In this document: piece after piece, positions 1 through 16,525 of the stretch
Position numbering within the stretch: position 1 is the first letter of the stretch
How the letters are laid out: every line of letters begins with the position of its first letter
Source: an uncultured Eubacteriales bacterium
GTDB lineage: Bacteria > Bacillota > Clostridia > Christensenellales > Aristaeellaceae
Length of the DNA stretch: 16,695 bases
Direction: 5' to 3'
Assembly: GCA_902789365.1 (NCBI GenBank)
Contig: CADANQ010000073.1
Span: 1-16,695, forward strand
The notes under the pieces: generated by a model
Database searches by the model: none
Seen by the model: only the letters and a program-made list of their open reading frames with translations
What the model was told of the DNA's origin: nothing
Made by a program: the position numbers and the translations under genes

Positions 1-100
1 CATGCCGCTGAAGCGGATCATGATCGGAGGGAGATCCCTCCGATACCTCCCCTCTGCTGCCATACGTTCATTCTCCTTCACACACGACTGAACAGTTACG
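1..100 (+). repeat. Partial copy (right end) of a ~241-bp MITE-like repeat element, copy 1. It extends off the window's left edge.
   Basis: About 90% identical to 1478..1567, sharing the palindrome atcggaggga-ga-tccctccgat. It ends at 100 with the same terminal sequence cgactgaacagttacg as the complete copy at 1552..1567. Confidence 0.55.
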
Positions 101-135
101 GACGTTCTTTGTCATGGCCTGCGTTGTTTCTGGGA

Positions 136-1302
136 TCAGCCGTTTTCTTCTCCGGCGCCGCGGAATATGGCGGAAAGAAAGCGGGTAATGTTTTCGTCGA
201 TTTCCACGGTATCGTCGGCCGCCATGCAGTAAAGCACCATCCAGTCAAAGGGCGTCCTGGAATCCAGCGGAGGAAACCCGCAGTCGGAAAGCATGCTGCT
301 GAGCCGGGCGTAGGAATCTTCGAACACGTCGTCCTCGGAGCCGTCGGAATAATAATCCCCGTAATCCGATTCCCCGCCGTCGCAGGCCATGAACAAAAGG
401 ATGAGCGCCTTGCGGGTGACGTCGATCTCCCGGCTTGTCATGCGGGCCAGGGTAAACTCGTCCGGCCAGTTTTGCTGGATATCCCGCTGAATGGCGTCCT
501 TCAGCACGCCGGCGTTTCCCTTCTTTTTGCTGTCGGCGTTCTTGCCTTTGGGAATCAGGTTCCGGTAAAGATAGGTCTCCAGGATCTCGGTAACCGTCAT
601 TTTCCTTTCTTCCGAAAGGCAATCGTCCATATCTGAGTTTTTCAGCAGGTCCATGAACCCCATGAACAGCTGGTATGCCGTGTTATGCAGCGCGCCGAGC
701 CTCGGCGCGGCCTCGCCGAGGAAAGCCTTCAGTTCTTCCTCGTTCTTCAGCCTGGAAACCTCATTGCGCACGTTCCCGGTCATCTCGCCCGCGTCCCCGT
801 TCTTCGCTTTGGCGCACAGGGGCGCCATACGCTCCTGCAGGGCGCAGGCTTCAGCCCAGTTCATTCCCCTGTCCAGGGCGAAAAGATACACAATGTCTTC
901 CGGGTCCCGCCAGTGGAAGCTTTCGCCGCACAGGCGCGGCAGCGCTTCTCCGGCGTCCTTTGCCGTCATCCCAAGGGCAAAGACCAGGTTCACGGCGCTT
1001 TTTTTGCTGATGTACTGGGGCTTATCGTTTATCCATATCCTTACCTTGCGCCCTATGTTATCCCGGTTCGCCCCCGGGGTGCTTTGGGCCAGCAGGTCCG
1101 TCACCCGCTTTTTCAGGGCGTCGCCGTCCTTTGGGTCCGCGCCGCAGAGCTTCGCCAGCGTTTCCGTCACCGGACGAAGATAGGCGTCCTCGTGCAGCCT
1201 GGTTCTGGCTTCCTTCAGCGTCAGGTTTCCCCCGGCCGCAATACGAAACATCAGGTCTGTCATTCCAAGCGGCTTATCGTCCACTGTTTTGTCCTCCGGC
1301 AT
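136..1302 (-). CDS. Hypothetical protein (388 aa), predominantly alpha-helical and acidic, with no family I recognise.
   Basis: Long minus-strand ORF with balanced amino-acid composition (D/E/K/L rich). The overlapping plus-strand ORFs are R/P/G/A-rich antisense artefacts. The ATG at 1300-1302 has only a weak GGA RBS. The gene is flanked by the two repeat-element copies. Confidence 0.55.
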   Translation of the reverse strand: MPEDKTVDDKPLGMTDLMFRIAAGGNLTLKEARTRLHEDAYLRPVTETLAKLCGADPKDGDALKKRVTDLLAQSTPGANRDNIGRKVRIWINDKPQYISKKSAVNLVFALGMTAKDAGEALPRLCGESFHWRDPEDIVYLFALDRGMNWAEACALQERMAPLCAKAKNGDAGEMTGNVRNEVSRLKNEEELKAFLGEAAPRLGALHNTAYQLFMGFMDLLKNSDMDDCLSEERKMTVTEILETYLYRNLIPKGKNADSKKKGNAGVLKDAIQRDIQQNWPDEFTLARMTSREIDVTRKALILLFMACDGGESDYGDYYSDGSEDDVFEDSYARLSSMLSDCGFPPLDSRTPFDWMVLYCMAADDTVEIDENITRFLSAIFRGAGEENG

Positions 1303-1326
1303 TCCGATCGGTTTTTAAAGATTATT

Positions 1327-1567
1327 CGTATCTGTTCAGTCCTACGGACAGAACAGATACCGCGGGGGGTACCCGTACCCCCCGCGAGCCCCCCGGGCGA
1401 AGAACGGAGTCCGGGGAAGGAAAACATCCTGCGGGAACGGTTCGGGGTATCGTTCCGCTTCACCGTACACGAAGCTTAAGCGGATTATAATCGGAGGGAG
1501 CTCCCTCCGATACCTCCCCACTGCTGCCATACGTTCGTTCTCCTTCACACACGACTGAACAGTTACG
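1327..1567 (+). mobile_element. Complete MITE-like non-autonomous element, copy 2.
   Basis: The terminal inverted repeats are CGTATCTGTTCAGTCC at 1327-1342 and CGACTGAACAGTTACG at 1552-1567 (14/16 as inverted repeat). A direct 6-bp ATTATT duplication sits at 1321-1326 and 1568-1573. There are three internal hairpins: H1 at 1328-1360 (15-3-15), H2 at 1361-1386 (12-bp GC arms) and H3 at 1391-1416. The left ~95 bp are repeated at 16526 onward and the right ~95 bp at 1..100. Confidence 0.6.
1342..1530 (-). CDS. Possible 62-aa small ORF carried inside the MITE-like element (MAAVGRYRRELPPIIIRL...). It may be a remnant of a transposase N-terminus.
   Basis: A perfect RBS AAGGAGA lies 8 nt before the ATG (the RC of 1528-1530), and the same RBS plus ATG is present in copy 1 at 61-78. 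Substitutions between the copies fall mostly at third codon positions. The C-terminal half runs through GC palindromes and looks non-protein-like. Confidence 0.15.
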   Translation of the reverse strand: MAAVGRYRRELPPIIIRLSFVYGEAERYPEPFPQDVFLPRTPFFARGARGGYGYPPRYLFCP

Positions 1568-1582
1568 ATTATTCTTCTACGG

Positions 1583-1611
1583 ATTATAATGGATAACTCG
1601 CAATTTGGCAA
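1583..1611 (-). promoter_or_regulatory. Sigma-A-type promoter TTGCCA-N17-TATAAT reading leftward into the MITE copy and the hypothetical gene.
   Basis: On the minus strand the -35 TTGCCA is the RC of 1606-1611 and the -10 TATAAT is the RC of 1583-1588, with a 17-nt spacer. Confidence 0.45.
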
Positions 1612-1805
1612 TAAAATCCGGAGCCGCCCTTTGTCTGATTTTTGTTCCTGCGTTTTTGTTTTATGCAGGATTTTATCCCGGCAGTATCGAAAGTATAATA
1701 AAATGGATTTGGTCCTGTCGCGTCTGAGTGGGCAAAGGTCCCCCGGAAGCGCGCGCCGGCGCGCCTCCGTTCGCCGGCCTATACCTTCAGGAAGGAAGCA
1801 GAAAT

Positions 1806-2423
1806 ATGGATTCCAAAGTATTGATCGAACTGATCGGCTACCTCGGCTCCGCCCTGGTGGTCGTTTCCATGCTGATGGCCTCGGTGGTGAAGCTGCGGGT
1901 GGTCAACACCGTCGGCAGCGCCATCTTCATGGGCTACGCCCTGGTGATCGGGTCCTATCCCACGGCGGTGATGAACTTTTTCCTGATCGCCATCAACGTG
2001 TACCATCTGTTGCGCCTATTCCGCAGCCACAAGGAATACGATCTTGTCGCCGCCTCCCCCGACGACGGCTTCGTAAAATACTTTCTGGATAAATACCGCG
2101 CGGACATCGCCGCGCACTTCCCCGGGTTCACCGAAAAGGACGCCCGTGCGGACCGCGTGCTGCTGGTGTGCTGCGGCGGCGACCCGGCCGGCATCTTCCT
2201 GTCCGACGACGCCGGGAACGGGGACCTGAATGTGCTTCTGGATTACGCCGTCCCCGCCTACCGGGACACTTCCGCCGGGCGCTTCCTGTACGCCCGGCTG
2301 AAGGAAAAAGGGTACCGCAGGCTGATTGCCATGGGTGATGCCGAAAAACACCGGGATTACCTGACCCACGTCGGATTCAAGCAGGAGGGAGACAGGTTTA
2401 TACTGGACCTGGGGGCGAAATAA
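1806..2423 (+). CDS. YgjV-family membrane domain (N-terminal ~75 aa, 2-3 TM helices) fused to an uncharacterised ~120-aa soluble C-terminal domain.
   Basis: The ATG at 1806 is preceded by a GGAAGGAAG RBS. The N-terminus (LIELIGYLGSALVVVSML...GSYPTAVMNFFLIAINVYHLL) resembles the Imp-YgjV inner-membrane family. The C-terminal segment VPAYRDTSAGRFLYARL is vaguely GNAT-like, which I hold with low certainty. The track ORF begins earlier at 1728, but that stretch has no RBS. Confidence 0.7.
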   Translation: MDSKVLIELIGYLGSALVVVSMLMASVVKLRVVNTVGSAIFMGYALVIGSYPTAVMNFFLIAINVYHLLRLFRSHKEYDLVAASPDDGFVKYFLDKYRADIAAHFPGFTEKDARADRVLLVCCGGDPAGIFLSDDAGNGDLNVLLDYAVPAYRDTSAGRFLYARLKEKGYRRLIAMGDAEKHRDYLTHVGFKQEGDRFILDLGAK

Positions 2424-2458
2424 GGCACGGCGGCTTCCGTATCCGCAAGCCAAGGCCC

Positions 2459-2508
2459 GGGGTCTTCGCGCCGTATGATGCGTGAAAACCCCAGGTCTTT
2501 TCTTTATA
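2459..2508 (+). terminator. Putative intrinsic terminator of the ygjV-like gene.
   Basis: The stem is ggggtcttcgcg / cgtgaaaacccc (10 of 12 bp) with a 10-nt loop, followed by aggtcttttcttt. Confidence 0.45.
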
Positions 2509-2966
2509 ATTCGGTTATGTGCATTTATCGGCACTGCCGTGGCGGCGGCCCGCGGTGCATTCACCCTGGGTTTATCATGGGTCGGCGGCCGCAGAAGGAT
2601 GGGGTAAGCCTTTGTCACGGTGTGGATACCGCAGGCGGACGGAGCGGTCAAAGATTCTTGACGTGGCTGTCTTCCCCGATGGACGTGGTATCCGTCCCCA
2701 TCAATGTACCGCGCGAGGCAGACGTCAGCCTGTGTCCTGCGGAAGACTGGCGGCAGCCCGTATTGCCTTCCCCCTTGGGGGAAGGGAGACCGCGGAGCGG
2801 TGGATGAGGTTCCTCGTCCCGCAGCATGCGGTGAACGTTTCGGATGATGGAAAACCTATGCCCTCTTATCGACAAAAAGGGAAAGACGGCGTGGAACGTG
2901 AGAACCTCATCCGTCTCCTCGCTGACGCTTGGAGCCACTGCCCGGGGCTGCCGCCCGCCCTCCGCT

Positions 2967-2991
2967 GAAAACAGTCCGCCGGACTGTTTTC
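2967..2991. other. Perfect 11-bp inverted repeat with a 3-bp spacer (gaaaacagtcc-gcc-ggactgttttc). It is a candidate bidirectional terminator or operator.
   Basis: Read directly from the sequence. U-runs flank the GC core on both strands. Confidence 0.35.
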
Positions 2992-3395
2992 CGAGCGCTC
3001 CGGGCCCCCCGAGAGGGAAGGCTTACGAAGTCTTCCTTGTCGGTTGAAAGATTCTGTGGCGAGCAAATTATGGAGAAATGCGTAGTAAAACACGACCCAT
3101 GGCAGGCGGCAGCCCGTCATTATAGGTCAATCTTTATTTTTCTGCCAATACACAGAACCGTCCCCTGTTTTTCGCATCGGGAACAACGCCAACCCAGGTT
3201 ACCGCCTCATCACCGATTGCCGCATGCCGAAGCATGGCGGCCCTCGGGCCGCCGCTACATATCGCTTTCCATTCGTTCGCTCGACAATAACTTTTTTTGC
3301 CTGTGCTTCAATGCCAGGGATTCCCACGTCGTTTTATGCGTGCCAATCACGAGCTTTAAATATTTCTTTTTTTAACTTGCCGCCGGGATTTCAGA

Positions 3396-6300
3396 TCAGA
3401 AGATACCTGATTCCAGATTCACCCACAAAGCGGGGCGAACGGCGGTATAGCCATCGTCGACAATGTCGTAGTTGTAGCGCGCACCATAGCTGTTCACATT
3501 GCAGGCGGAAGAAGAGTCCCGCCCCGACGACCGCAACCACCACTTGCAGTTCCCATTGTATGCGTTATATGGTGCTCCCTGGGCAACAGCATATTCCGTC
3601 GGTTTGCATTCCAAGGCACTGTCGCTCTTGAAATAACCCCACGCTTCCGCGTAACTTAGCAGGAAGACCCGGTCTTCCGTATCTTTCCCTCCGCTCGTGT
3701 TCCATCCGCTGTACCCCTGACCTGCACCGTTGTCCACCTTTGTCAGCACGATTGCCGTTTGCTCCCGAGCTGTGAAAGCTTTGTTCAGGAACGTCCCGTT
3801 CAGCCACGTCCGCAGAGTGCAAGTTTCCCACGTCACGCTTGTCCAACCCGTATTATACGGATGACAGTCAAGCGCATATTGGCTGATCAGCAGCGCTTTC
3901 TGTCCGTCCCTCGCAAGCACCAGCCATTCGATCGGCGTGCTATCATTTCCAGACGCCGTCTGCGGATAGGTGCCGAAAGTGACATAATTTCCCAAGCCGA
4001 ATTTCGCGTCACGTTCCGCCGCTGCAGCTACTGCCATAAGATTCTGAGCATTCGCCAGCAGGCTGTCTACGTCCTTGTAACCTTTAATCCCGATAAAGAT
4101 TACAGCGGCTCCGGCATAATCGCCCTTCGACGCCAGATTCTTCGCCTTCAAGTATCGTGTCTCCGTAATCTGCACCGCAGCGTCTGAATAGTTCCCGAGC
4201 GTTGTGAATTCTTCTATCGCCTCCTCATATCTCCCCGCCTGCTGCAGCGCGACCGCGGCCTTGTAATCGCGCTCTTTTATACTGTTCCTGCATACTTCAA
4301 TCTGCGCCGCGGAATCTCCGTATCCGTCCAGCGCTTCAAATGCCGCAATCGCTTCCTCATACTTCCCCGCCTGCTGCAGCGCTATCGCTGCATTGTAATC
4401 ACGCTCTTTGATACTGTTCCTGCATGCTTCAATCTGCACCGCGGAATCTCCGTATCCGTTCAGCGCTTCAAATGCCGCAATCGCTTCCTCGTACTTCCCC
4501 GCCTGCTGTAGCGCTATCGCTGCATTGTAATCACGCTCTTTGATACTGTTTCTGCACGCTTCAATCTGAGCTGCGGAATCACTGTATCCGTTCAGCTCTT
4601 CGAATGCCGTAATCGCTTCCTCGTATCTCCCCGCCTGCTGCAGTGCGACCGCGGCCCTGTAATTGTTGCCGGGAATAATAACCTTTGTAACAAGGATAAT
4701 TGCCGCAATGATCAATACCGGAACCAGAATGGCAAGGATCGTGTCCCGTAACTTTTTGACAGCAGCCGCTTCCTCCGCGCGCCGTTTTTCCTCATTTTCG
4801 GCAGAAAGGCATTCCTCATACCGCTTGTCGGCTTTTTCCCTCAGCTGCTCCACATCGCGGTAGCCGTTAAGTTCCCATTTGGCAAGGGCACTTTTAACGT
4901 TTGACCACTTGCGGCTGTCCTCTCCCGCATTCTTAATCTGCTTCATCACTTCGTTATACTGATAGGACCGAATACTTTCCGCGGATTCAAAACATTCTTT
5001 TGCCTTGGCCTTCGCGTCACGATAAGAGGGGATCGTTTGAAATATCTTTGCCGCATCCTCAAGGATTGCTGGATCGTTCAACCCGCTTCTTTGTTTTTGT
5101 TCGGCGCTGTCATAAACAGCCTTCTGCCTTGCCTGCTCCGCCAAAGCGCGGCACTGCTTCGCGCATTCCGACGCATCTTTATCCCCAACGGAATCAAACA
5201 TTTCCGCGGCCGTTTTGAAACCTTGCTCGGTCACATAACCCGGATCGTTGTTTCGTACTGTCTGTCGGAAAATCTTCTCGTTATGCTCGCTGTTCGCACG
5301 CCGCTTTCCGTCTGCCCGATCACCCTGGGAACGCGCGCAGGTCTCCCTGTATCTTTCAAGCTCCCTGTCAAGTTTTTCCCGGTCCGCTTTCGGGCTGACC
5401 GCCATCTCCATGGCGCAGTCATATGCGTAATCGCGGATCTGCCTGTCCACCCGCTCCTTTGCCTTTGCCGCATACTCTTCATACGTTTTTTTCTGCCCCG
5501 GGTCGGCAAAGCGCAGGGCCTTTTTCCAGTCCGGATCATCATTATACAGGAACGTCGCTTCAGCAAGTTCGCTCTCCCTGCACATACCGAATTTAACGCA
5601 GGCCTTGGCGGCATAGGCAGGAGCGTATTCCGGGTCGATATCCAGCACCCGGTCCAGGTATTCGGAAGCGCTGCGGAAGTCCCCGTCCTCCATGAACAGC
5701 TGCGCCCGCTTCATCAGGCTGGCGACGCCCGGCGCTGCGATGTCGGCGGACGCCGCCGGCGCGGCCTGCCGCGCAGTCACGGAGCTCCCGGCCTTTTTAT
5801 CCGCATCCAGCACCTTTTTGACGCCGCGGATCAGATCCTGCATGAAGCCGATCTTCCCCATGTCCTGGCTCTGCAGGCTGCTCAGCTCGTCCGGCAGGTC
5901 GTAGGGGTCCATGCCCCGGTAACAGGGGATCAGCAGACGCCCGCGGTCGTTCGCCATCAGCTTCAGGTAGCGGCTCCATTCGTTCCTTACCCACACGGCG
6001 CTGAAATATTCCGGTTTGCTCCCGATGACCACCATCACTTTAGCGCTGTTCAGCGCCGCGAAGATATAGGGCTCGTATTCCTGCCCCAGCTTGTCCTCCA
6101 GGGTGATGCGGCTGAAGAACACCTTGTAGCCCTGCTCCGTCAGGCCGTAGTAAACGTCCTGCGCCCACTGGCTGTCGTGGGTGCGCTGCCCGTTTTCGTC
6201 GGTCTCCTTATAACAGATAAAGACGTCGTAGGGCTTTTCGTTTTGCGATATGGCCAGGATGCCCCTTTGGATCTCCGCGATGCGGGCGCCCTCCTCACGG

Positions 6301-6695
6301 TAGATCCGGCGGCTTTCATCGTCCGGCGCGTATTCCACCGCGGCCTTGTAATCCTCGTCCGAAAGGATGGAGGTCAGCTGCAGCCGGTGGCAGGTGGGCA
6401 CCCGTTTCCCGGTGGCAGGATCCTCCACATATTCGATGCCATACCGGCTGATGACCACGCCCCAGTGGGCCTCGGCGTCGGTATCGTCCTGCTCCAGGAT
6501 CTTTTCGTACGCCGCGGCCGCCTTGTCGAACTCCCCCTGCCGCCGGAAATGGTTGGCCCGGTTATAGCGGTTCAGCTTGCCCTCGTCCTCAGCCTTCGGA
6601 ATGGTGGAGACGCTGCCGCAGTATTCGCAGGTGCCGTAAGTGGCGCCGGGAATGAAATCAATGTCTCCGCCGCACATCTTGCATTTGATGATCAT
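3396..6695 (-). CDS. 1099-aa single-pass membrane protein. Reading N to C: zinc ribbon, TIR domain, coiled coil, TM helix, four TPR-like 44-aa repeats, then a C-terminal extracellular domain of the DUF6273 type.
   Basis: A GGAGG RBS lies 5 nt before the ATG at 6695. The N-terminus has CxxC...CxxC at aa 5-26. Residues 154-250 (KPYDVFICYKETD...KVMVVIGS...AVWVRNEWSRYL) match TIR hallmarks, and Glu239 in WVRNE aligns with the catalytic Glu of NADase TIRs. The TM helix ILAILVPVLIIAAIILVTKVII spans aa 654-675. The repeats NAAIALQQAGKYEEAIAAFEALNGYGDSA.QIEACRNSIKERDY occur four times at aa 676-850. The C-terminal 200 aa (FGTYPQ...IEWLVLARDGQKALLISQYALDCHPYNTGWTSVTWETCTLRTWLN...) match the clostridial DUF6273-like family. 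Confidence 0.85.
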   Translation of the reverse strand: MIIKCKMCGGDIDFIPGATYGTCEYCGSVSTIPKAEDEGKLNRYNRANHFRRQGEFDKAAAAYEKILEQDDTDAEAHWGVVISRYGIEYVEDPATGKRVPTCHRLQLTSILSDEDYKAAVEYAPDDESRRIYREEGARIAEIQRGILAISQNEKPYDVFICYKETDENGQRTHDSQWAQDVYYGLTEQGYKVFFSRITLEDKLGQEYEPYIFAALNSAKVMVVIGSKPEYFSAVWVRNEWSRYLKLMANDRGRLLIPCYRGMDPYDLPDELSSLQSQDMGKIGFMQDLIRGVKKVLDADKKAGSSVTARQAAPAASADIAAPGVASLMKRAQLFMEDGDFRSASEYLDRVLDIDPEYAPAYAAKACVKFGMCRESELAEATFLYNDDPDWKKALRFADPGQKKTYEEYAAKAKERVDRQIRDYAYDCAMEMAVSPKADREKLDRELERYRETCARSQGDRADGKRRANSEHNEKIFRQTVRNNDPGYVTEQGFKTAAEMFDSVGDKDASECAKQCRALAEQARQKAVYDSAEQKQRSGLNDPAILEDAAKIFQTIPSYRDAKAKAKECFESAESIRSYQYNEVMKQIKNAGEDSRKWSNVKSALAKWELNGYRDVEQLREKADKRYEECLSAENEEKRRAEEAAAVKKLRDTILAILVPVLIIAAIILVTKVIIPGNNYRAAVALQQAGRYEEAITAFEELNGYSDSAAQIEACRNSIKERDYNAAIALQQAGKYEEAIAAFEALNGYGDSAVQIEACRNSIKERDYNAAIALQQAGKYEEAIAAFEALDGYGDSAAQIEVCRNSIKERDYKAAVALQQAGRYEEAIEEFTTLGNYSDAAVQITETRYLKAKNLASKGDYAGAAVIFIGIKGYKDVDSLLANAQNLMAVAAAAERDAKFGLGNYVTFGTYPQTASGNDSTPIEWLVLARDGQKALLISQYALDCHPYNTGWTSVTWETCTLRTWLNGTFLNKAFTAREQTAIVLTKVDNGAGQGYSGWNTSGGKDTEDRVFLLSYAEAWGYFKSDSALECKPTEYAVAQGAPYNAYNGNCKWWLRSSGRDSSSACNVNSYGARYNYDIVDDGYTAVRPALWVNLESGIF
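4233..4680 (-). repeat. 132-bp in-frame tandem repeat, about 3.4 copies (units start at 4233, 4365, 4497 and 4629), encoding the TPR-like 44-aa repeats.
   Basis: The exact 132-bp period is read from the recurring ccccgcctgctgcagcgc motif. The central copies are more than 90% identical at the DNA level. Confidence 0.8.
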
Positions 6696-6735
6696 CGCAA
6701 TTGCCTCCGTTTTATCAAATATCCTTTGTCACAGG

Positions 6736-7377
6736 TCATTTTCCGGACTTCGCAAGCGCCTTCCGCTCTTCCAGCATGCGGAAGGCCTTTTGAATATTGG
6801 CCGCGTCGGCATAGCTCGAAAGGGTCTCCAGCATATCGGCAATCCGGCTGTCCATGGGGGTGGGCGTGGGATCCGCGTACCGGATCTCCTCCGCCAGCTT
6901 TTTGATTTCCGGATGGTTCGTGGCAGCCGCAATGGCCGCGGCCCGGGTACGGATGGCCTTCCAGGGGCCGGTTTTATCCTCCGGAGCGGCTTCAGACCGG
7001 CGAACGGCTTCCCTCGCCGCGTCCTTCACCGTAAGGCAGATTGCCGCGGCGGCGAATACCGCCAGCTCGGCGGCAATTGCCGCCCAAACGGGGCAGAAGG
7101 AGGCAATGCCCATGATGACCGCCCCAACGATCAGCTGAACGATTACAAAGATATACCCCACCCGAAAAATGGGCCAGCCCAGCAGCTTGCTTTCAAGCGT
7201 CCGTTCCCTGCGGAAGGCGCGGAAAAAGGCGGCGGCGCACAGGCCGAACATCGCCGCGGTGCATCCCGCGCCGATCCACCATGCCGCCGTACGGTCAAAG
7301 GGAATCAGAATCATCAGAGCGATAACGAGTACCAGGGCCACGGACCAGACGATCCATGCGTGTTTGGTGAGCTTCAC
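6736..7377 (-). CDS. Small membrane protein (213 aa) with four predicted TM helices and a ~90-aa helical cytoplasmic tail.
   Basis: The GTG start at 7377 is preceded by an AAGGGGGAA RBS. It lies 4 nt after the upstream gene's TAA, indicating translational coupling. There are four hydrophobic stretches. Confidence 0.7.
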   Translation of the reverse strand: MKLTKHAWIVWSVALVLVIALMILIPFDRTAAWWIGAGCTAAMFGLCAAAFFRAFRRERTLESKLLGWPIFRVGYIFVIVQLIVGAVIMGIASFCPVWAAIAAELAVFAAAAICLTVKDAAREAVRRSEAAPEDKTGPWKAIRTRAAAIAAATNHPEIKKLAEEIRYADPTPTPMDSRIADMLETLSSYADAANIQKAFRMLEERKALAKSGK

Positions 7378-7380
7378 TTT

Positions 7381-9177
7381 TTATTCCCCCTTCTTCTTTC
7401 CGCAGTCCGGGCAGAATTTGCTGGTGATTCCCGTGCGTCCGCAGGAACAGTCCCAGGTGTCCGGTTCCGGCTTTTTCATGCCGCACTCGGGACAGAATCT
7501 GCTGGTGATGCCCGCGCGTCCGCAGCCGGGGCAGGTCCAGCCCAATTGGTGCTGAGGCCTTTTGGCCCCGCAGTCGGGGCAGAACCTGCTGGCAATGCCC
7601 TTCGCGCCGCAGGCGCAGTCCCATGTATCCGTGGGAATGGCCCCGCCGATGCCGGCGGCCGCCTGTGTAACCGGGGTGATGGCTTCCTTTGCCATGCCGA
7701 TCACGCTGCCCATGGTGCCGAGGCCCACGCCCAATTGCATCATGTCCCCGGCAAGGCCCGTTGCGCCCCCCGCGCCGCCGTTCTTCATGGCCTCCAGGCC
7801 CACCTGGCGCGCGGTTTCCTGCTGGTAGGTGTAGCCCTTCATGCGCATTTCCTGGGCCTCCGCCTCGGCCTGCATGCGGTATACGTCCGCCTGGGCCTGG
7901 CCGGAAATACGCGCGGCCTCGGCCTCGCCCTGAGCGCCGATCACCTTCATGCGGGCCGCGGTCTGGGCCTCCACTGCCTTGCGCTCGAAGGCTGCTTCGG
8001 CCTCCGCCTTGCGGATTTCCTCCTCCCGGGTGCGCAGGTACATGTCCGCGTGCTGCTGCTTGACACGGCGGAAATTGGGGTCGTCGTCGGGGGTGACGAT
8101 GTTGGCCACATAGAATTCCGGCATCTCCAGGCCGTATTCCTTCAGCTCCGGATTGATGGCTTCCCTCAGGGCCAGGCTGATGCTTTCCACATGCTCGTCC
8201 AATTCCAGCACGTTGAAGCGGTTGGCCTTGATGATCTTCGCCAGGCTGCCCTTCACCTTGGCGGCAACCATGGTGCGGAAATAGCCCGAATCCAGGCTGG
8301 CGGAAGCCGTAACGGTGACGCCGCCGGCCTGAGCGGAAACGGAGGCGCTTTCGCTGCGGAACAGGTCGTCCCGGCTGAGATTGCCGGTGGTGCCCACCAG
8401 CCTGATCAGAAGCTTGCGCGCGTCGGTCACCCGCAGGTTAAAGGATCCGGACGCGCCAAGCTCCACGTGCAGCCCGGTGGCCGGGTCAAACAAGCCCACC
8501 CGGCTGGGGGTGCCCCATTTGATGCCCATCTGGGTGGTCAGGTTGACGAAATATACCTCCGCGTGGAAGGGCTGCCCCTGCACGGGAAGGCGGTACAGCT
8601 GTTCCATTTTGGGCAGGATGCCCGTTTCCAGGGTGTATCTGCCGGGACCGAAGGAATCCAGCGCCTCGCCGTTGCGGAAAAAGACGGCCTCCTGGCTTTC
8701 GTGAACGATCAGCTGGCTGCCCGTCACGAAGTCCGTCAGGGGATGTTTCCACACAAAGGTGCTGTTGTCCCCCTCAAAGCTGATGACCGACGGAATGCCG
8801 GCATCCCGCATTTCGGCCTTTTTGATCTCCTGCTGCACGTCGCATTCAGCGTCGCACATGGGGCAGGCAATGGTATCCGCCGCCTTGTCCGCCTGCAGGC
8901 GGCACCCGCAGGTGGGGCAGCGGAAATGCACCAGGTTGATATAGGTCTCATCCGATATCAGGTTAGCCTTGCATACGGGGCATTTGGCGTTTCTCCCCTC
9001 CGCCTGGTCATACACCACATGGTTGCCGCAGGACGGACAGTCCATGGCCGCCATCCGGTCGGTTTTGACGTTGATGATGTTGCCGCAGGAGCAGCGGATA
9101 TGCTTGCTGGCGAAAAAACCCGTGCTTGCCTGGGCGTAGTTGTGGCAGGCCGGGCACGCGATGATAAACTTGCTCAT
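7381..9177 (-). CDS. SPFH/band-7 domain protein (Band_7_1/YdjI-like, COG4260-type) flanked by three N-terminal and three C-terminal zinc ribbons.
   Basis: A GGAGGGA RBS lies 6 nt before the ATG. Six CxxC pairs occur in the first 115 aa. The core FVWKHPLTDFVTGSQLIVHESQEAVFFRNGEALDSFGPGRYTLETG...PFHAEVYFVN is typical of PF13421-type SPFH domains. There is an Ala/Glu-rich coiled coil and a Gly-rich linker. The C-terminus carries three copies of W(D/T)CxCG...FCP(D/E)CG. Confidence 0.85.
   Translation of the reverse strand: MSKFIIACPACHNYAQASTGFFASKHIRCSCGNIINVKTDRMAAMDCPSCGNHVVYDQAEGRNAKCPVCKANLISDETYINLVHFRCPTCGCRLQADKAADTIACPMCDAECDVQQEIKKAEMRDAGIPSVISFEGDNSTFVWKHPLTDFVTGSQLIVHESQEAVFFRNGEALDSFGPGRYTLETGILPKMEQLYRLPVQGQPFHAEVYFVNLTTQMGIKWGTPSRVGLFDPATGLHVELGASGSFNLRVTDARKLLIRLVGTTGNLSRDDLFRSESASVSAQAGGVTVTASASLDSGYFRTMVAAKVKGSLAKIIKANRFNVLELDEHVESISLALREAINPELKEYGLEMPEFYVANIVTPDDDPNFRRVKQQHADMYLRTREEEIRKAEAEAAFERKAVEAQTAARMKVIGAQGEAEAARISGQAQADVYRMQAEAEAQEMRMKGYTYQQETARQVGLEAMKNGGAGGATGLAGDMMQLGVGLGTMGSVIGMAKEAITPVTQAAAGIGGAIPTDTWDCACGAKGIASRFCPDCGAKRPQHQLGWTCPGCGRAGITSRFCPECGMKKPEPDTWDCSCGRTGITSKFCPDCGKKKGE
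7390..7625 (-). repeat. Approximately 78-bp tandem repeat, three copies (~75% identical), encoding the C-terminal zinc-ribbon triplet.
   Basis: The unit ccgcagtccgggcagaatttgctggtgattcccgtgcgtccgcagg recurs three times with substitutions. Confidence 0.7.
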
Positions 9178-9287
9178 GATGCTTCCCTCCGTGGATCGAA
9201 TTTTCAGGCAGGCGGTCTTTAAGGTTGATTAAGCCGTGTCCCGAACGGGGCGTACGGAACAAGCCGGCATGTGTCATACTGATATCT

Positions 9288-9316
9288 ATTTTATCCTATG
9301 AAAGGGTTGTTTTCAA
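9288..9316 (-). promoter_or_regulatory. Putative sigma-A promoter TTGAAA-N17-TAAAAT for the SPFH-TM-TIR operon.
   Basis: The -35 is the RC of 9311-9316 and the -10 is the RC of 9288-9293. This leaves a ~110-nt leader before the ATG at 9177. Confidence 0.45.
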
Positions 9317-9564
9317 TGATTTCCAAACATTTTATGTCGAAACGGCGGGCGGCAGCCCGTTGTATCTTCTCATTTGACGGCCCGGAGCGACCGATAAACA
9401 GGCTGTTGACTGTTTTCGGCACAAGGTGTGCGGCAGCCCGAGGCGCTTTATCCGTACGGGGTCTGAGGCTCCGGAAAATAAGTCCGGCGGGCTGTTGGGA
9501 GGCGGCGGATATCACCTTTTCCGGGCACCCGCATCCCGCGGCATATCCCCGTCCCGGAATCCCG

Positions 9565-9593
9565 TTGCCCCGCGCGTCAAACCGTGGTAAAAT
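9565..9593 (+). promoter_or_regulatory. Putative fbp promoter TTGCCC-N17-TGgTAAAAT with an extended -10.
   Basis: The -35 is at 9565-9570 and the TG-extended -10 at 9585-9593. A leader hairpin ccgccg-tgatc-cggcgg sits at about 9608-9624. Confidence 0.35.
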
Positions 9594-9669
9594 GGTTACA
9601 GAAGACCAACCGCCGTGATCCGGCGGATAACAGTATAACGCTGACCATACGCGAACAGGAGGAAACAAG

Positions 9670-11586
9670 GTGGACGGGAAAATTTCAGCGGCGGACCTCA
9701 AATATCTGCGTCTCCTGGGGGAGCAGTACCCCACCATTGAAGCGCTGTGTGCGGAAATCACCCGCATCAGCGCCAAACTGAGCCTTCCAAAGGGCACCGA
9801 GCATTTCATGAGCGACATCCACGGTGAATATGAAGCTTTCTGCCACATCATGAACAACTGCTCCGGCGTGGTCCGGGAAAAAGTGAACCTTTGGCTCGGT
9901 GACCTGTCCGTCCGTGAGGCGGATGAACTGTGCACGCTGATCTATTATCCCGCAGCCATCCTCAAGCAGCGTCACCAGAAGGGCGAGATCCTCCCGGAAT
10001 GGTACAAACGTCAGACGGAACACCTGATCCGCCTTTGCAGGCTGCTTTCATCCAAATATTCCCGGGAAAAGGTCCGCCGCTTCATGCCGGACGGCCTTGC
10101 TTTTCTGCTGGACGAGCTGATGCACTACCAGAACGACGAAACCAACGAGGAAAGCGAGCAGGAAGGCAACCGCCGCCGCTATCACGACGCCATCATCGAC
10201 ACCCTGATTTCCACCCGCTCCATCGACAGCCTGATCGAAGCGCTGACGGAGATGATCAAAAAGCTTTCGGTGGACCGGCTTCATGTGGTGGGCGATATTT
10301 ATGACCGCGGTCCCCGTGCCGACAGCATCATGGATATCCTGATGACCCATCATTCCGTGGACATCGAATGGGGCAACCACGACATTCTCTGGATGGGCGC
10401 GGCGTCAGGAAGCGAGTGCTGCATCGCGGGTGTCCTGCGCAACTCCATTTCCTACGGCAACATGGAGATTCTGGAGCGCGGATACGGCATCCCCCTGAGA
10501 GAACTGACCCTTTACGCCGAAAAGCGCTACCCCGACCTGAAGCCGGATCAGGCCATGGTGCAGGCGGTCAACGTGATGATGTTCAAGCTGGAAGGACAGC
10601 TGATCAAAAGGAACCCGGAATTTGAAATGGAGGACCGCCTGCTGCTGGACAAAATCGACCCGGAGCGGCGGACGGCGGAAATCGACGGGGAGGTCTGGCC
10701 GATTAAGCCCGTTCCCCTGCCAACCGTCGATTTCAGCGATCCTTACGCCCTGACGAACGAGGAATCCCAGGTCATGGCCGGGCTGAAGCGGGCCTTCACC
10801 CACAGCCTGCGGCTGCGCGAGCACATCGCTTTCCTTTACCGGCGGGGATGGATGTACCGGGCCTTCAACGGCAACCTGCTGTTCCACGGCTGCGTTCCGC
10901 TGAACGCGGACGGAACGTTCCTCAAAAAAAAGCTGGACGGAAAGGAACTGAGCGGCAAGGCCCTGATGGATTACGCGGACCGCGTCGCCCGCCGTGCCTT
11001 TTACAACGGGGACCGGGCGGCGCTGGATTTCATGTGGTACCTGTGGTGCGGCACGGATTCGCCGGTATGCGGACGCCGGGTCAAGACCTTCGCCAGGGCT
11101 TTTATTCCCGACGAACGCGCGTGGCAGGAGCCCCGCAATCCTTATTACGAATGGTATAATTCCGAAAGCAAATGCCGGGAAATCCTGGCGGAATTCGGCC
11201 TGACAGAGGAGACGTCCTGCATTGTCAACGGCCATACGCCCATCCGGGTGACTCACGGGGAAAGCCCCCTGAAGGCCGGCGGCAAGCTGGTGGTAATCGA
11301 CGGCGGTTTCTGCCGGGCTTACCAGAAAACCACCGGTATTGCCGGGTACACCCTGATATCCAACAGCCACGGGATGCGGCTGATGTCCCACCAGCCCTTC
11401 ACATCCCTGAGGGACGCCCGGGAAACCGGGCGCGATATCCATTCCCAGTCCTTCGAATTCAAGACCTTCGCCCAAAGGAAATACGTCGCCGACACCGACC
11501 AGGGCCGGGCGCTGACGGAGCGCATGCGCGACCTGATGCGGCTGCTTGAGGCCTGCCGGAGCGGCGTAATCAACCTTCAGAGATGA
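9670..11586 (+). CDS. fbp: Fructose-1,6-bisphosphatase class III (Bacillus Fbp type).
   Basis: The GTG start at 9670 follows an AGGAGGA RBS 8 nt upstream. The 638-aa product is collinear with B. subtilis Fbp: PKGTEHFMSDIHGEYEAF, HVVGDIYDRGP, WGNHDILWMGA, GHTPI, VIDGGF, GIAGYTL. Confidence 0.95.
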   Translation: MDGKISAADLKYLRLLGEQYPTIEALCAEITRISAKLSLPKGTEHFMSDIHGEYEAFCHIMNNCSGVVREKVNLWLGDLSVREADELCTLIYYPAAILKQRHQKGEILPEWYKRQTEHLIRLCRLLSSKYSREKVRRFMPDGLAFLLDELMHYQNDETNEESEQEGNRRRYHDAIIDTLISTRSIDSLIEALTEMIKKLSVDRLHVVGDIYDRGPRADSIMDILMTHHSVDIEWGNHDILWMGAASGSECCIAGVLRNSISYGNMEILERGYGIPLRELTLYAEKRYPDLKPDQAMVQAVNVMMFKLEGQLIKRNPEFEMEDRLLLDKIDPERRTAEIDGEVWPIKPVPLPTVDFSDPYALTNEESQVMAGLKRAFTHSLRLREHIAFLYRRGWMYRAFNGNLLFHGCVPLNADGTFLKKKLDGKELSGKALMDYADRVARRAFYNGDRAALDFMWYLWCGTDSPVCGRRVKTFARAFIPDERAWQEPRNPYYEWYNSESKCREILAEFGLTEETSCIVNGHTPIRVTHGESPLKAGGKLVVIDGGFCRAYQKTTGIAGYTLISNSHGMRLMSHQPFTSLRDARETGRDIHSQSFEFKTFAQRKYVADTDQGRALTERMRDLMRLLEACRSGVINLQR

Positions 11587-11616
11587 AAAAAAGAAGCGGG
11601 ACCTCCGCGGCCCCGC
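11586..11616 (-). terminator. Intrinsic terminator for the minus-strand ADP-ribosylglycohydrolase gene. It also gives weak bidirectional coverage of fbp.
   Basis: The hairpin gcgggacc-tccgc-ggccccgc at 11596-11616 is followed on the minus strand by UUCUUUUUUU. On the plus strand only CCUUUCC follows it. Confidence 0.5.
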
Positions 11617-11677
11617 CCTTTCCCCGGCACATTTCCCTTGCCGGTGTCCTGACAATACAGCGCATCAAATCCAAAAC

Positions 11678-11761
11678 TTCACTCTTCACTCTCCACTCTT
11701 CACTCTCCGCTCTCAACTCTCCACTCTTCACTCTCCACTCTCCGCTCTCAACTCTCAACTC
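11678..11761. repeat. Heptanucleotide microsatellite with 12 tandem units of TYCRCTC (ttcactc, tccactc, tccgctc, tcaactc). A 6-unit higher-order repeat is also present.
   Basis: Read directly from the sequence. It overlaps the last four codons and the 3' UTR of the ADP-ribosylglycohydrolase gene. Confidence 0.85.
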
Positions 11762-12545
11762 TTTTCTTAAGCCTTTCCGCAACGGCGCGCATGTCCTCCG
11801 GCAGCCGGGCACGGCATTCGGCCTCCAGTTCTTTCGGCACCCCGTAAAAGGCCTCGGCCATGGAGCCCGCGATGCAGGTCAGGGTGTCGCAGTCGCCGCC
11901 GAGGGACACGGCGGTGCGGATCACATCCTCGAAGTCCGTCCCCTCAAGGAAAGCGGTGATCGCCTCGGGCACGGTCTTTTGGCATGTCTCTACGTGGTGA
12001 TAGGTCGGGCGGATCTGGTCGCAGGTACGGCTCAGGTCATAACCGAAAGCCGCGGTGATATATTCCCGAATCCGCTCCTTTGACGCGCCTGTCCGGGCCA
12101 GGAAGACGGCGGCAGCCGTCGCCTGAGCGCCTTTGATGCCCTCGGGATGGTTGTGGGTCACCTCGGCGGTCAGTTTCGCCGCGTGCAGGGTTTCTTCCAG
12201 GGTATCGTACAGCCATCCGGCGGAGCTGACGCGCATGGCCGAGCCGTTACCGAAGCTCCCGTACGGGGCGGGGTTGCCGCTCATCAGCCATCTGTAAAAC
12301 ATTCCGCCGTACCCGGCGTCGGGATAGCGTCGTCCCCATTTGCGCATGGATTTGATCAGGGCGGCGCGAATTTCGTCGTCGGTCCCGCCCATGCTGTCCA
12401 TCAGCGCTTCCGCCACGGCCACCGACATCACCGAATCGTCGGTAAACACGCTCCGCTTGCCGAAAAGCGGAAAATCCCTGGTTTTATTGCCCATGTCAAA
12501 TTCATAGGGCGCGCCGATCATGTCTCCAAGCAAAGCTCCGTACAT
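11748..12545 (-). CDS. ADP-ribosylglycohydrolase family protein (DraG/ARH-like).
   Basis: An AGGAGG RBS lies 8 nt before the ATG. Family motifs are present: GALLGDMIGAPYEF, GNGSAMRVSSAGW, and LGGDCDTLTCIAGSMAEAFYG (the Mg-binding Asp/Thr cluster). Confidence 0.85.
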   Translation of the reverse strand: MYGALLGDMIGAPYEFDMGNKTRDFPLFGKRSVFTDDSVMSVAVAEALMDSMGGTDDEIRAALIKSMRKWGRRYPDAGYGGMFYRWLMSGNPAPYGSFGNGSAMRVSSAGWLYDTLEETLHAAKLTAEVTHNHPEGIKGAQATAAAVFLARTGASKERIREYITAAFGYDLSRTCDQIRPTYHHVETCQKTVPEAITAFLEGTDFEDVIRTAVSLGGDCDTLTCIAGSMAEAFYGVPKELEAECRARLPEDMRAVAERLKKRVES

Positions 12546-12728
12546 ACTTCAAACCTCCTGTCTTTTGTTCAGCGGCATGATATCACATTATCCCGATCCG
12601 TTGGTCGTCCGCCGGGCGACATTTACGCGGGCGTTCCCCGGTCTGTGCTTTCTATTCCGGCCTGCCGCTTTCTCGCCGCGCTTCCGGGGCATTTGCCGGT
12701 ATCCATCACGCCGCAAGGGGTTAAAAAA

Positions 12729-13550
12729 ATGGTTATACGAATTTCCGACGACTTTGACCTTGAGAAAATCGAAACCAGCGGCCAGTGCTTCCGATGGACG
12801 CGAACGGAAGCGGACACCTGGCGCGTCCTCAGCGGGGAATCCTGCCTGTATATCTCATCCCTGGGGAACGGCGATTATGCCCTCGACTGCGGCGAGGACG
12901 AATTCGACAGCCGATGGAAGGACTATTTTGACCTGCGGGAAAGCTACGCCTCCATCCGCGCGCGAATCGATCCCGCAAAGGACCCCTTCCTCCACGCCGC
13001 GGCGGAGCATGGCAGAGGCATCCGCATCCTGCGTCAGGACCCTTGGGAAACGCTGGTATCCTTCATCATATCCCAGAACCGCAATATCCCGGCCATCCGG
13101 CGCTCGGTGGAAAAGCTGTGCACCCTGTGCGGCGAAAAAAAGACCGATTCCCGGGGCATCGAATACCATGCGTTTCCCTCCCCCGTTTCCGTCGCCGCTC
13201 TTACATTGGAGGACCTTTCCCCCTGCAGGCTCGGCTACCGTGACAGATACGTCCTGCGGGCGGCGAAGGACGCGGCGGCGGGTTTATTGGACCTTGAAGC
13301 AATGCGGGACATGCCCTGCGCCGACGCCGTAAAGGAGCTTGAAAAACTGTACGGGGTCGGTAACAAGGTTGCCTGCTGCGCCGCGCTTTTCGGCCTGCAC
13401 CGTCTGGACGCCTTTCCCCGGGACGTGTGGATCAACCGCGCCCTGAAGGACGAATACCCGGATGGCTGGCCCTATGAAAAATACAGCCCTTACAACGGGG
13501 TGTACCAGCAGTATATATTCGCGTATTACCGCGCGTTGAAAGGCAGATGA
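12729..13550 (+). CDS. ogg: 8-oxoguanine DNA glycosylase / AP lyase (Ogg, HhH-GPD superfamily).
   Basis: The internal ATG at 12729 has an AAGGGG RBS. The N-terminal DFDLEKIETSGQCFRW motif and the HhH-GPD motif LYGVGNKVACCAALFGLHRLDAFPRDVW are both present. The longer track ORF has a junk-like N-terminus. Confidence 0.8.
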   Translation: MVIRISDDFDLEKIETSGQCFRWTRTEADTWRVLSGESCLYISSLGNGDYALDCGEDEFDSRWKDYFDLRESYASIRARIDPAKDPFLHAAAEHGRGIRILRQDPWETLVSFIISQNRNIPAIRRSVEKLCTLCGEKKTDSRGIEYHAFPSPVSVAALTLEDLSPCRLGYRDRYVLRAAKDAAAGLLDLEAMRDMPCADAVKELEKLYGVGNKVACCAALFGLHRLDAFPRDVWINRALKDEYPDGWPYEKYSPYNGVYQQYIFAYYRALKGR

Positions 13551-13598
13551 GCTTCCGCGCTCGGACATTCGCAAATACGTCATAAAGGAGATCGATCC

Positions 13599-14171
13599 AT
13601 GGATAATATCGTTGAAGCCGCCAGGGAATATATCGCCGGACTGTTCCGCGGGAATGCCGGAGGGCACGACGCAGCCCACACCCTGCGGGTATACCACAGC
13701 GCGATTCTGATCGCGGAAAAGGAAAAATCCGGCGATCCCGAAACCGTCGCCCTCGCGGCCCTTCTCCACGACGCCGACGACCATAAGCTGTTCCATACGG
13801 AAAACAACCGAAACGCCCGGTCCTTCCTGGCATCCCACGGCGTGGACGCCGAAAAAACCGAGCGCATCATCGCGGCCGTGAACTCCGTGTCCTTCAGCCG
13901 GAACCGCGGAAAGAGGCCTTACACCATTGAGGGAAAAATTGTGCAGGACGCGGACCGCCTGGACGCCATCGGCGCCGTTGGCATCGCGCGTACCTTCGCC
14001 TACGGCGGGGAGCACGGCCGCGGCCCGGACGATTCCATCGCCCATTTCCATGAAAAGCTGCTTCTTTTGAAGGACGAAATGAACACGGACACCGCGAAGG
14101 CCATGGCCGAGGAACGGCACGCCTTCATGCTTGCCTTCCTGAAGGAGTACGCCCGGGAAACAGGCGGATAA
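13599..14171 (+). CDS. HD-domain phosphohydrolase.
   Basis: An AAGGAG RBS lies 9 nt before the ATG. HD motifs are present: GHDAAHTLRV...LLHDADD...QDADRLDAIG. It lies 48 nt after ogg and is probably co-transcribed with it. Confidence 0.85.
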   Translation: MDNIVEAAREYIAGLFRGNAGGHDAAHTLRVYHSAILIAEKEKSGDPETVALAALLHDADDHKLFHTENNRNARSFLASHGVDAEKTERIIAAVNSVSFSRNRGKRPYTIEGKIVQDADRLDAIGAVGIARTFAYGGEHGRGPDDSIAHFHEKLLLLKDEMNTDTAKAMAEERHAFMLAFLKEYARETGG

Positions 14172-14212
14172 GGGCGGCGCGTTATCCGTATATCGGCCGT
14201 TTCCCGAACACA

Positions 14213-14596
14213 TCAAAGAATATATTCCGCAATCATCCTGGAAAGCTTGCCGAAATCCGTGTTCCCGATGACCCTGAACGTGACTTCCGCCCCGTTGCAA
14301 AATGACAGCGTCAATTCGGAATCGGACGCATCGCCGATCGATCCCGTGGTCTGGATAGAAAAGAAATTCACTTTGCCGTAGGGCAGGGTTGCATACGATT
14401 TCCTTTTTCCCGAAAGTCCCTGCGTGTCGGCGGCAATGATCCTCTTGTTGGTAAATATCACCTGTTCCCGGGGGTTACGGAACGCCGCGGCGCATTCCTC
14501 CCCCGTCACCAGCAGGGCAAATACATCTTTATCAACTGACTGAAGATCGGTCGGATTCAGGGTGCAGATTCCGCCCGCGCTGAAACTGATGGCCAT
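14213..14596 (-). CDS. Bacterial PH-domain protein (bPH/YokE-like).
   Basis: The core VIFTNKRIIAADTQGLSGKRKSYATLPYGKVNFFSIQT is typical of bacterial pleckstrin-homology domains. It lies downstream of, and on the same strand as, the LRR gene. Confidence 0.65.
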   Translation of the reverse strand: MAISFSAGGICTLNPTDLQSVDKDVFALLVTGEECAAAFRNPREQVIFTNKRIIAADTQGLSGKRKSYATLPYGKVNFFSIQTTGSIGDASDSELTLSFCNGAEVTFRVIGNTDFGKLSRMIAEYIL

Positions 14597-14665
14597 GGGT
14601 CAAATTTCCTTTCTTACAATTTTTTTCGTTCTCACGCCGTATTTCCGCCCCTGATATCCTGCGGT

Positions 14666-15814: not shown

Positions 15815-15874
15815 ACCCGCCCTCCGTTATTCCGTTATTTTCGGCCCGATCCTTCACCGGACCATTACGAACAA

Positions 15875-15904
15875 ATTATATCATGTTCTCCGAGCGGCGG
15901 TCAA
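15875..15904 (-). promoter_or_regulatory. Promoter TTGACC-N18-TGaTATAAT (extended -10) for the LRR/PH operon.
   Basis: The -35 is the RC of 15899-15904 and the -10 is the RC of 15875-15880 with TG upstream. This leaves a ~55-nt leader. Confidence 0.5.
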
Positions 15905-15986
15905 GGAACAGCCCCCGCTCCTTTTCCCGCGATTTCGTCCCCCCGCGTAAAAAACGCCGACGCGACAATGATCCGCCCCGGAACCG

Positions 15987-16024
15987 GAAAAACGCAAAAG
16001 GGACCGCCCTTTCGGGACAGTCCG
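15987..16024 (-). terminator. Intrinsic terminator of ybjQ.
   Basis: On the minus strand the hairpin GGACUGUCCC-GAAA-GGGCGGUCC is followed by CUUUUGCGUUUUUCC. Confidence 0.45.
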
Positions 16025-16071
16025 CGGATAAGCGTTTGCCGGGCGGAAGAATCGTTCTCCCCGCGCCGGGG

Positions 16072-16383: not shown

Positions 16384-16485
16384 AACGAAACCCCTTTCTC
16401 TTCCCTTTGTTTTCATTTTTCGTGTTTTGTTTCCGCTCCGCCGCGGCGCCGGCCTTCCCGGCGCCCGACCGGCTTTCTGAATATC

Positions 16486-16514
16486 ATTATCATGATTTCA
16501 TGTACAACTGTCAA
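16486..16514 (-). promoter_or_regulatory. Consensus sigma-A promoter TTGACA-N17-GATAAT for ybjQ.
   Basis: The -35 is the RC of 16509-16514 and the -10 is the RC of 16486-16491. It lies immediately downstream, in the minus sense, of the third repeat-element copy. Confidence 0.55.
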
Positions 16515-16525
16515 GTTATTCATAA

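Follow-up and report, generated by a model that had tools for sequence, protein, structure and literature searches.

A hairpin-rich miniature element with ISBst12-type termini in the genome of an uncultured clostridium

What kind of mobile DNA is a short, hairpin-rich repeat that lies in front of a bacterial gene, and from which transposase family could its ends have come? This question is raised by contig CADANQ010000073.1 (positions 1 to 16,695, forward strand; hereafter the window, i.e. the whole stretch of 16,695 nucleotides that was analysed), which belongs to an uncultured Eubacteriales bacterium (Clostridia; Christensenellales; Aristaeellaceae; assembly GCA_902789365.1) and holds such a repeat next to a gene encoding a 382-aa protein. 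We read the repeat, with a probability of about 0.9, as a non-autonomous miniature inverted-repeat transposable element, or MITE, of the class mobilised by the DDE transposases of single-gene IS66-family insertion sequences (IS), more exactly those of the ISBst12 group. Inverted termini, an 8-bp target-site duplication, an empty orthologous site, copies at multiple sites, the lack of a transposase, and ends that match those of bona fide IS66-family elements were all observed. Its mobilisation in trans by a resident ISBst12-type transposase is what we infer from them, as only 16.9 kb of the host genome are on hand to speak for the identity and presence of the partner.

The complete copy is a short allele of 239 bp (1328-1566), with IS66/ISBst12-type ends (GTATCTGTTCAGTC... 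and ...GACTGAACAGTTAC) that are complementary at 13 of 14 positions and no transposase between them. The GTATC end (GTATCTGTTCAGTCC, 1328-1342, plus strand; compare the end GTATCTATTCAGCC of the plasmid-borne IS discussed below) pairs with the GTAAC end (1553-1566, minus strand), which reads inwards as GTAACTGTTCAGTC, and the inverted repeats are 14-15 nt long and begin with GTA. Immediately outside them stands the same 8-bp sequence, GATTATTC, on the left (1320-1327) and on the right (1567-1574). The preliminary description had delimited a 241-bp element with 16-nt inverted repeats starting CG and a 6-bp duplication, ATTATT. Its match of 14 out of 16 positions between 1327-1342 (CGTATCTGTTCAGTCC) and the reverse complement of 1552-1567 (CGTAACTGTTCAGTCG) was reproduced, and ATTATT does occur on both flanks, but the flush direct repeat is 8 bp long, and the outermost C (1327) and G (1567) are part of this duplication rather than of the inverted repeat. 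We settled on the shorter element and the longer duplication because the empty site holds a single GATTATTC, because the GTAAC end is preceded by T instead of C in the family copies of two metagenome contigs (L044 and L048), and because 25 of 30 elements with the same termini carry 8-bp duplications. A degenerate 20-nt motif derived from the ends matched the window at four places (81-100, 1327-1346, 1548-1567 and 16526-16545), while none is expected according to 200 dinucleotide-preserving shuffles.

The state of the locus before insertion is preserved in a relative (NCBI GCA_024712465.1; locus L055), which was found via homologues of the adjacent 382-aa gene, whose contigs were fetched and aligned. 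In this genome, in which the flanking gene product is 93% identical to that of the window, the site reads TTTTTAAA-GATTATTC-TTCTACGG and is devoid of the element; in its wider surroundings (...GGTTTTTAAA GATTATTC TTCTACGGATTATAAT...) there is one GATTATTC only. The 90-nt left flank is identical to the window at 85 of 90 positions and the right flank is collinear. A single GATTATTC with no element, as opposed to two copies around one, indicates an insertion accompanied by an 8-bp duplication, so that the search for empty sites proposed earlier did confirm a duplication, albeit one of 8 and not 6 bp. The MITE was likewise lacking at the orthologous site in the relatives L049-L055, among them relatives at 87% identity. 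We conclude that it is a real and recently mobile element; the earlier view of a mobile, non-coding and MITE-like repeat thus holds good, given the inverted repeats, the duplication, the empty site and the missing transposase.

The IS66 family is characterised by ends that start with 5'-GTAA, a type also reported in the literature, and by a duplication of 8 bp. Set against this hallmark, the MITE has one end of the GTAAC type and another that begins with GTATC, and its termini fall squarely within the ISBst12-group consensus GT[AT]ACT[AG][CT]TCAG. Whereas the terminal sequence had not been recognised at the outset as that of any named IS family, its matches to elements that carry IS66 transposases assign it to IS66, ISBst12 group. 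One such element resides on the Geobacillus kaustophilus plasmid pHTA426: it encodes one 485-aa protein (PF03050, i.e. DDE_Tnp_IS66; zf-IS66; DUF6444; NF033517, i.e. transpos_IS66; named in RefSeq 'IS66-like element ISGka4 family transposase'), ends with GTAACTATTCAGCC... and ...GGCTGAATAGATAC (in longer readings GTAACTATTCAGCCCGTAC... and ...GGGCTGAATAGATAC; the other end, read inwards, is the GTATCTATTCAGCC mentioned above), and has the duplication AACTCGTC on both sides. Relatives located by tblastn were IS elements of B. tropicus (end GTAACTACTCAGCT, duplication ATTCTTTC), D. wulumuqiensis (end GTAACTGCTCAGCA, duplication TAAAAATC) and C. estertheticum (end GTTACTGCTCAGCC, flanks matching at 7 of 8 positions).

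The closest terminal matches came from metagenomes, where a scan with the pattern GTAACTGTTCAGTCGTGTG returned the family copies L044 and L048 plus three contig-end fragments (L045-L047; JGI metagenome Ga0209737). In these fragments an open reading frame (ORF) ending in ...SHD* enters the terminal GTAACTGTTCAGTCGTGTGAAGG, with its stop codon within the repeat, and the terminus equals the GTAAC end of the MITE (1548-1566, read inwards) at 19 of 19 positions. The ORF matches PF03050 (E = 2e-9), shares 43% identity with the C-terminal part of the transposase of pHTA426, and has truncated IS66 transposases as its closest database relatives, the taxon-named ones being labelled Bathyarchaeota or Bathycorpusculum. 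A further IS66-type element, on the contig of one of these relatives (L057; GCA_009778815.1, WRFL01000102.1, 1651-4082), with the ends GTAACTATTCAGTCG and GTAACTGTTCAGTCG, is interrupted by another insertion, and one of its ends agrees with the GTAAC end of the MITE at 14 of 14 positions. Elements of both sources thus share this end with the MITE, but they differ from it in carrying IS66 DDE sequence and in being truncated or interrupted, so that no intact copy showed its two ends; a search for a full-length copy of the IS behind L045-L047 gave only truncated or interrupted ones. A protein on the contig of L057 is named Candidatus Bathycorpusculum (Bathyarchaeia), which places the terminal motif in an archaeal metagenome-assembled genome (MAG) as well as in bacteria. 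As the window element lacks a transposase, it should be regarded as a derivative or a passenger with IS66-family ends and not as a member of IS66.

The same termini were also encountered around entirely different short elements. A genome collection (one genome per species) was scanned with the end motif preceded by an obligatory C before GTA; since this C belongs to the duplication, targets that end in C were favoured and most insertions probably escaped the scan, which with this pattern returned neither a copy of the window element nor an autonomous IS. What it did return were many other short repeats that share only their first 15-20 nt with the window element, at least three families of them in the rumen Clostridiales MAG RUG14473 and one in a Pirellulaceae MAG. 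These resemble the window element in their termini (GTAACTGTTCAGTC... and ...GAATAGATAC), 8-bp duplications, small size (135-305 bp), stacked hairpins and intergenic position, but their interiors have no detectable similarity to it and they constitute separate families. That elements from different phyla have nothing but their termini conserved suggests that one transposase family is common to them. Among 30 short elements with these termini (almost all from RUG14473) the 8-bp duplication was perfect in 25 and retained 7 of 8 positions in two, and the Pirellulaceae copy is flanked on both sides by CTGACTGC.

In RUG14473 (CADCAS01, loci L001-L033), eight of the 30 duplications read CGGATTTC/GAAATCCG and reflect repeated insertion in one arm of a recurrent palindrome (GAAATCCnnnnGGATTTC); many MITE copies of this genome have runs of N in their interior. 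Additional searches for the window element were without result: a metagenome scan with a 22-mer from the interior of its longest variant found nothing, nor did scans of viral contigs with two end patterns, a plasmid BLAST with a 36-nt end region gave chance-level matches only, and a literature search for the terminal 12-mer led to unrelated primer sequences only.

Within the window, two additional copies are cut by its edges. The left one (1-99; flank GGACGTTC, 100-107) comprises the GTAAC-end part of a variant of ~366 bp, whose positions 7-99 are 90-93% identical to 1474-1566, and the right one (16527-16695; flank TTCATAAC, 16519-16526) comprises the GTATC-end part of a long variant and is 91-92% identical to 1328-1425. 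The former sits ~36 nt past the stop codon of the 382-aa gene and the latter ~140 nt upstream of a YbjQ-family gene; all three copies are intergenic. An ENA contig (ERZ27280466 k141_1155639, 16,945 bp; loci L034 and L036) includes the window and reaches beyond it by 123 nt to the left and by 42 nt to the right; its two ends overlap over 67 nt with one mismatch, which allowed us to reconstruct a non-coding variant of ~366 bp, matched at 93% by the L048 copy. The partial copies announced in the preliminary description (7-99 and 16527-16695) are therefore real, but they represent this longer MITE variant and not the ends of a full-length IS. Since the outer flanks differ (TTCATAAC versus GGACGTTC), the two end copies are separate insertions and the contig is not circular; a circular contig with one element across its junction was considered and rejected on account of these flanks and of the mismatch in the 67-nt overlap. 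The contig ends arise from the assembly breaking inside the repeats.

At the locus of the complete copy, the ENA contig (L036, 1451-1774) holds a 324-bp allele in place of the 239 bp of the window, with 85 extra nucleotides of hairpin sequence after window position 1425 and no microhomology seen at the junction. The sizes of the family are thus modular (239, 324 and ~366 bp). Altogether five distinct insertion sites were found (three in the window, plus those of L044 and L048), all of them with different flanks, in line with the dispersed repeat family that had been proposed from the window alone. The 382-aa gene (136-1284, minus strand) is bracketed by two copies in the same orientation, and recombination between them is possible. 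A MITE-gene-MITE composite around this gene was rejected, as the copy at 1328-1566 has its own duplication on both sides.

The interior of the complete copy is rich in hairpins. An inverted copy of the terminus (GGACAGAACAGATAC, 1346-1360, minus strand) forms a hairpin with 1328-1342 (15-nt arms, 93% pairing, 3-nt loop), as had been noticed before, and may provide a third potential binding site for the transposase. It is followed by a perfect GC-rich palindrome (CGCGGGGGGTAC/GTACCCCCCGCG, 1361-1372/1375-1386; 12-nt arms, 100%), which on the minus strand receives a terminator-like score (12 pairs, 9 of them G-C) and is succeeded by TATCTGTTCT, and farther on by a perfect 22-bp palindrome (ATCGGAGGGAG/CTCCCTCCGAT, 1490-1500/1501-1511; 11-nt arms, 100%) that is also found in the left partial copy (23-44). 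The three strong palindromes exist as described, but the statement that they make up almost the entire interior was exaggerated: they cover 81 of 239 nt, and part of the remainder consists of weaker hairpins. As a single strand, the MITE folds with -55.6 kcal/mol (z = -5.6 versus shuffles).

The element has no coding capacity. The 62-codon ORF that starts MAAVGRYRR... (1342-1530, minus strand), although preceded by AAGGAG, is spurious and no transposase: it passes through the 22-bp palindrome, the ORF enclosing it had no match in Pfam, and its homologue in the ~366-bp variant (MAAEGRYRR...) meets a stop after 21 codons. The suggestion that MAAxGRYRR marks the start of a transposase is consequently abandoned, with frames of 62 codons in the 239-bp copy and 21 in the longer one. 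No transposase was detected in any MITE copy (by the ORF lengths of 62 and 21 codons, and by Pfam for the enclosing ORF), and Rfam 15 gave zero matches in the window at gathering thresholds.

An element without a transposase must be moved in trans, and we envisage the following course of events. An ISBst12-type transposase, supplied by an autonomous IS, would recognise the termini of ~14 nt (GTAACTGTTCAGTC and GTATCTGTTCAGTC) and insert the element at staggered cuts 8 bp apart, the repair of the gaps giving rise to the flanking duplication of GATTATTC. The interior, devoid of a transposase, is a stack of hairpin modules whose number varies among copies (239, 324 and ~366 bp). The copy at hand landed a few bases downstream of a transcription start that is predicted from a conserved promoter-like site, and should hence be transcribed as part of the 382-aa gene's message, giving it a 5' leader with much structure.

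How well do other explanations account for these data? Mobilisation by a different DDE family that makes 8-bp duplications (ISL3, IS256, IS1595, IS6 or ISH6) could be advocated on the grounds that a duplication of this length is not by itself family-specific and that the same genome yielded no partner transposase (collection scans; 16.9-kb contig). The ends of those families, however, start with GG or GA and are not known to begin with GTAA, and 11-14 of 14 terminal positions of the MITE agree with those of verified IS66-family elements (19 of 19 in L045-L047), so we consider this origin very unlikely. A still smaller chance is left to the proposal that a single full-length IS, with a transposase starting MAAxGRYRR, gave rise to both the window ends and the 239-bp copy as its remnants, the short copy being a direct deletion derivative of this parent in the same genome. 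Every copy does have a Shine-Dalgarno-like AAGGAG and an ATG 37 nt inwards from its GTAAC end, as this scenario would have it, yet the extended contig resolves the end copies into the non-coding ~366-bp variant with its frame of 21 codons, and the one complete IS66 transposase that was examined (that of pHTA426) starts with MANVAF..., ~100 nt from the IS end.

A repeat of non-transpositional nature, either akin to the repetitive extragenic palindromic (REP) sequences and bacterial interspersed mosaic elements (BIMEs) or a structured non-coding RNA, could spread between genes by duplication or recombination. The hairpin-rich interior, which folds well beyond shuffled controls, the intergenic position of the three copies and the variation of their hairpin modules would suit it. 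It is hardly tenable in view of the precise empty site with one 8-bp repeat (not what a deletion in the relative would leave behind), of inverted-repeat termini held in common with transposase-bearing IS elements, of the same termini around unrelated interiors in other genomes, and of the lack of an Rfam match at gathering thresholds. Palindromes are equally what recommends a palindrome-associated element of the IS200/IS605 kind, for which a Y1 (HUH) transposase recognises subterminal hairpins and moves single-stranded DNA: one end of the MITE bears a prominent hairpin (1328-1360), and several palindromes are present besides. IS200/IS605 elements are not known to have terminal inverted repeats or to make a target duplication. 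The MITE has both, the latter confirmed by the empty site, and we give this last explanation next to no credence.

Several points nevertheless weigh against an IS66/ISBst12-type MITE, or against parts of the account given of it. The searches revealed no autonomous IS of the ISBst12 type in this organism (16.9-kb contig; collection scans of the lineage), and the exact end matches that come with a transposase stem from distant hosts (closest named proteins from Bathyarchaeota). Which end is proximal to the transposase is ambiguous, as the GTAAC end lies upstream of the gene in pHTA426 and downstream of it in L045-L047. Among the 30 elements with the same termini, three end pairs have no duplication, at least one of which represents mispaired ends of neighbouring elements (L033, 7275-7706). 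The difference between the 239- and the 324-bp alleles could in principle be an assembly artefact, and both the activity of the promoter described below and the effect on the gene are predictions.

The 5' leader predicted for the 382-aa gene (136-1284, as called in ENA contig L036) contains the complete MITE. This gene, without an assigned function, has 202 homologues at E <= 1e-10, with no informative source name among the 120 matches listed, and the sole Pfam match of its product is marginal. Upstream of the gene, a near-consensus match to a sigma-70-type promoter (TTGCCA-17-TATAAT, 11 of 12 positions; 1583-1611, minus strand) is conserved in relatives, its bases being invariant across eight aligned sequences, those with the empty site included. 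The duplicated target is located 9-16 nt downstream of the -10 hexamer, and given this promoter match the whole element should be transcribed as a 5' leader. Its minus strand would then offer a mini-ORF (AAGGAG/ATG) and the 12-bp GC-rich hairpin followed by UAUCUGUUCU, which looked terminator-like in our scan, and the leader RNA is predicted to fold with -125.5 kcal/mol (z = -5.0), with long-range pairing between the two ends of the MITE. A polar or attenuating effect on the 382-aa gene, which would probably lower its expression, is plausible. A bolder scenario, in which hairpin MITEs are not mere passengers, this copy acts through its position after the predicted promoter, its mini-ORF and its strong GC hairpin with a U-rich tail as a transposon-delivered leader or attenuator that rewires the 382-aa gene, the 239/324-bp polymorphism tunes this effect, and ISBst12-type ends seed many independent MITE families across phyla, appears to us unlikely as a whole.

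Other features of the window deserve mention. Between the genes for FBPase and an ADP-ribosylglycohydrolase lie ~14 tandem heptamers (CACTCTY)n (11672-11769), and similar arrays (CCATTYT)n adjoin MITE insertion hot spots in RUG14473. The FBPase is of the Firmicute type and the relatives are named 'Clostridia bacterium' MAGs, as befits an uncultured Clostridia host. The region 2430-9600 holds a 1099-aa protein with TPR, TIR_2 and DUF6273 domains (3396-6695, minus strand), an ORF of 213 aa, and a 598-aa zinc-ribbon SPFH protein (7381-9177, minus strand); the 87% relatives have in its place a 665-nt spacer that retains a 129-aa remnant of TPR, hence it varies between relatives, and the TIR-domain gene in it hints at a putative role in defence. 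At one side of this region (2430-3395), ~1 kb without a convincing gene contains hairpins and the motifs GGCGGCAGCCCG... and AACAGTCCGCCGGACTGTT, which recur inverted at the other side (9348-9496) and may either belong to a further repeat family or mark where the region is bordered. The gene of the 1099-aa protein includes three copies of a 132-nt tandem repeat (4198-4663; 81-100% identity), a fourth being suggested by a shorter sub-repeat, and the SPFH gene has, at its C-terminal end, three 61-nt repeats spaced 81-87 nt apart (7384-7612), to which recurring zinc-ribbon modules correspond.

The analysis ties a previously unplaced repeat to a defined transposase family and corrects its boundaries. 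Elements of this kind can be annotated from a 14-nt end motif together with an 8-bp duplication, and in rumen Clostridia and in Planctomycetes several MITE families that are unrelated to one another have ISBst12-type ends. Such MITEs break short-read assemblies (here, the contig ends inside copies on both sides) and create strain-level insertion and length polymorphisms beside promoters.

MITEs derived from IS66 or ISBst12 were not found described in the open-access literature: neither is mentioned in a 2024 review of prokaryotic MITEs (PMC10969869), IS66 is not mentioned in the preprint of a large MITE survey, and the single MITE that a paper on IS66 brought up is an unrelated one with a 4-bp repeat. 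The nearest experimental reference is ISDge4 of Deinococcus geothermalis, a single-ORF member of the ISBst12 group of IS66 with ends GTGACTACTCAGCA and GTAACTGCTCAGCA and an 8-bp direct repeat, whose transposition has been observed (PMC12898284). Its end GTAACTGCTCAGCA is identical at 11 of 14 positions to the GTAACTGTTCAGTC of the MITE, and the two resemble each other in imperfectly paired ends and in the 8-bp repeat, but ISDge4 is autonomous and encodes a 449-aa transposase, whereas the window element measures 239 bp, has no transposase and resides in an uncultured Clostridia host. With the IS of pHTA426 the MITE shares the GTAAC/GTATC asymmetry, a terminal match of 12 out of 14 positions and the length of the duplication, and it differs from this IS of ~1.6 kb in lacking the 485-aa DDE transposase and in an unrelated interior. 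Compared with the classical bacterial MITEs (Correia, RUP and MITEAba12), it is likewise small, non-coding, bounded by terminal inverted repeats and a target duplication, and presumed to be mobilised in trans, and those elements, too, often lie near promoters and are often co-transcribed (PMC10969869, and general knowledge); they are derived from other IS families and have other ends and duplication lengths. The element works like any bacterial MITE, and the understanding of how MITEs work stays unchanged.

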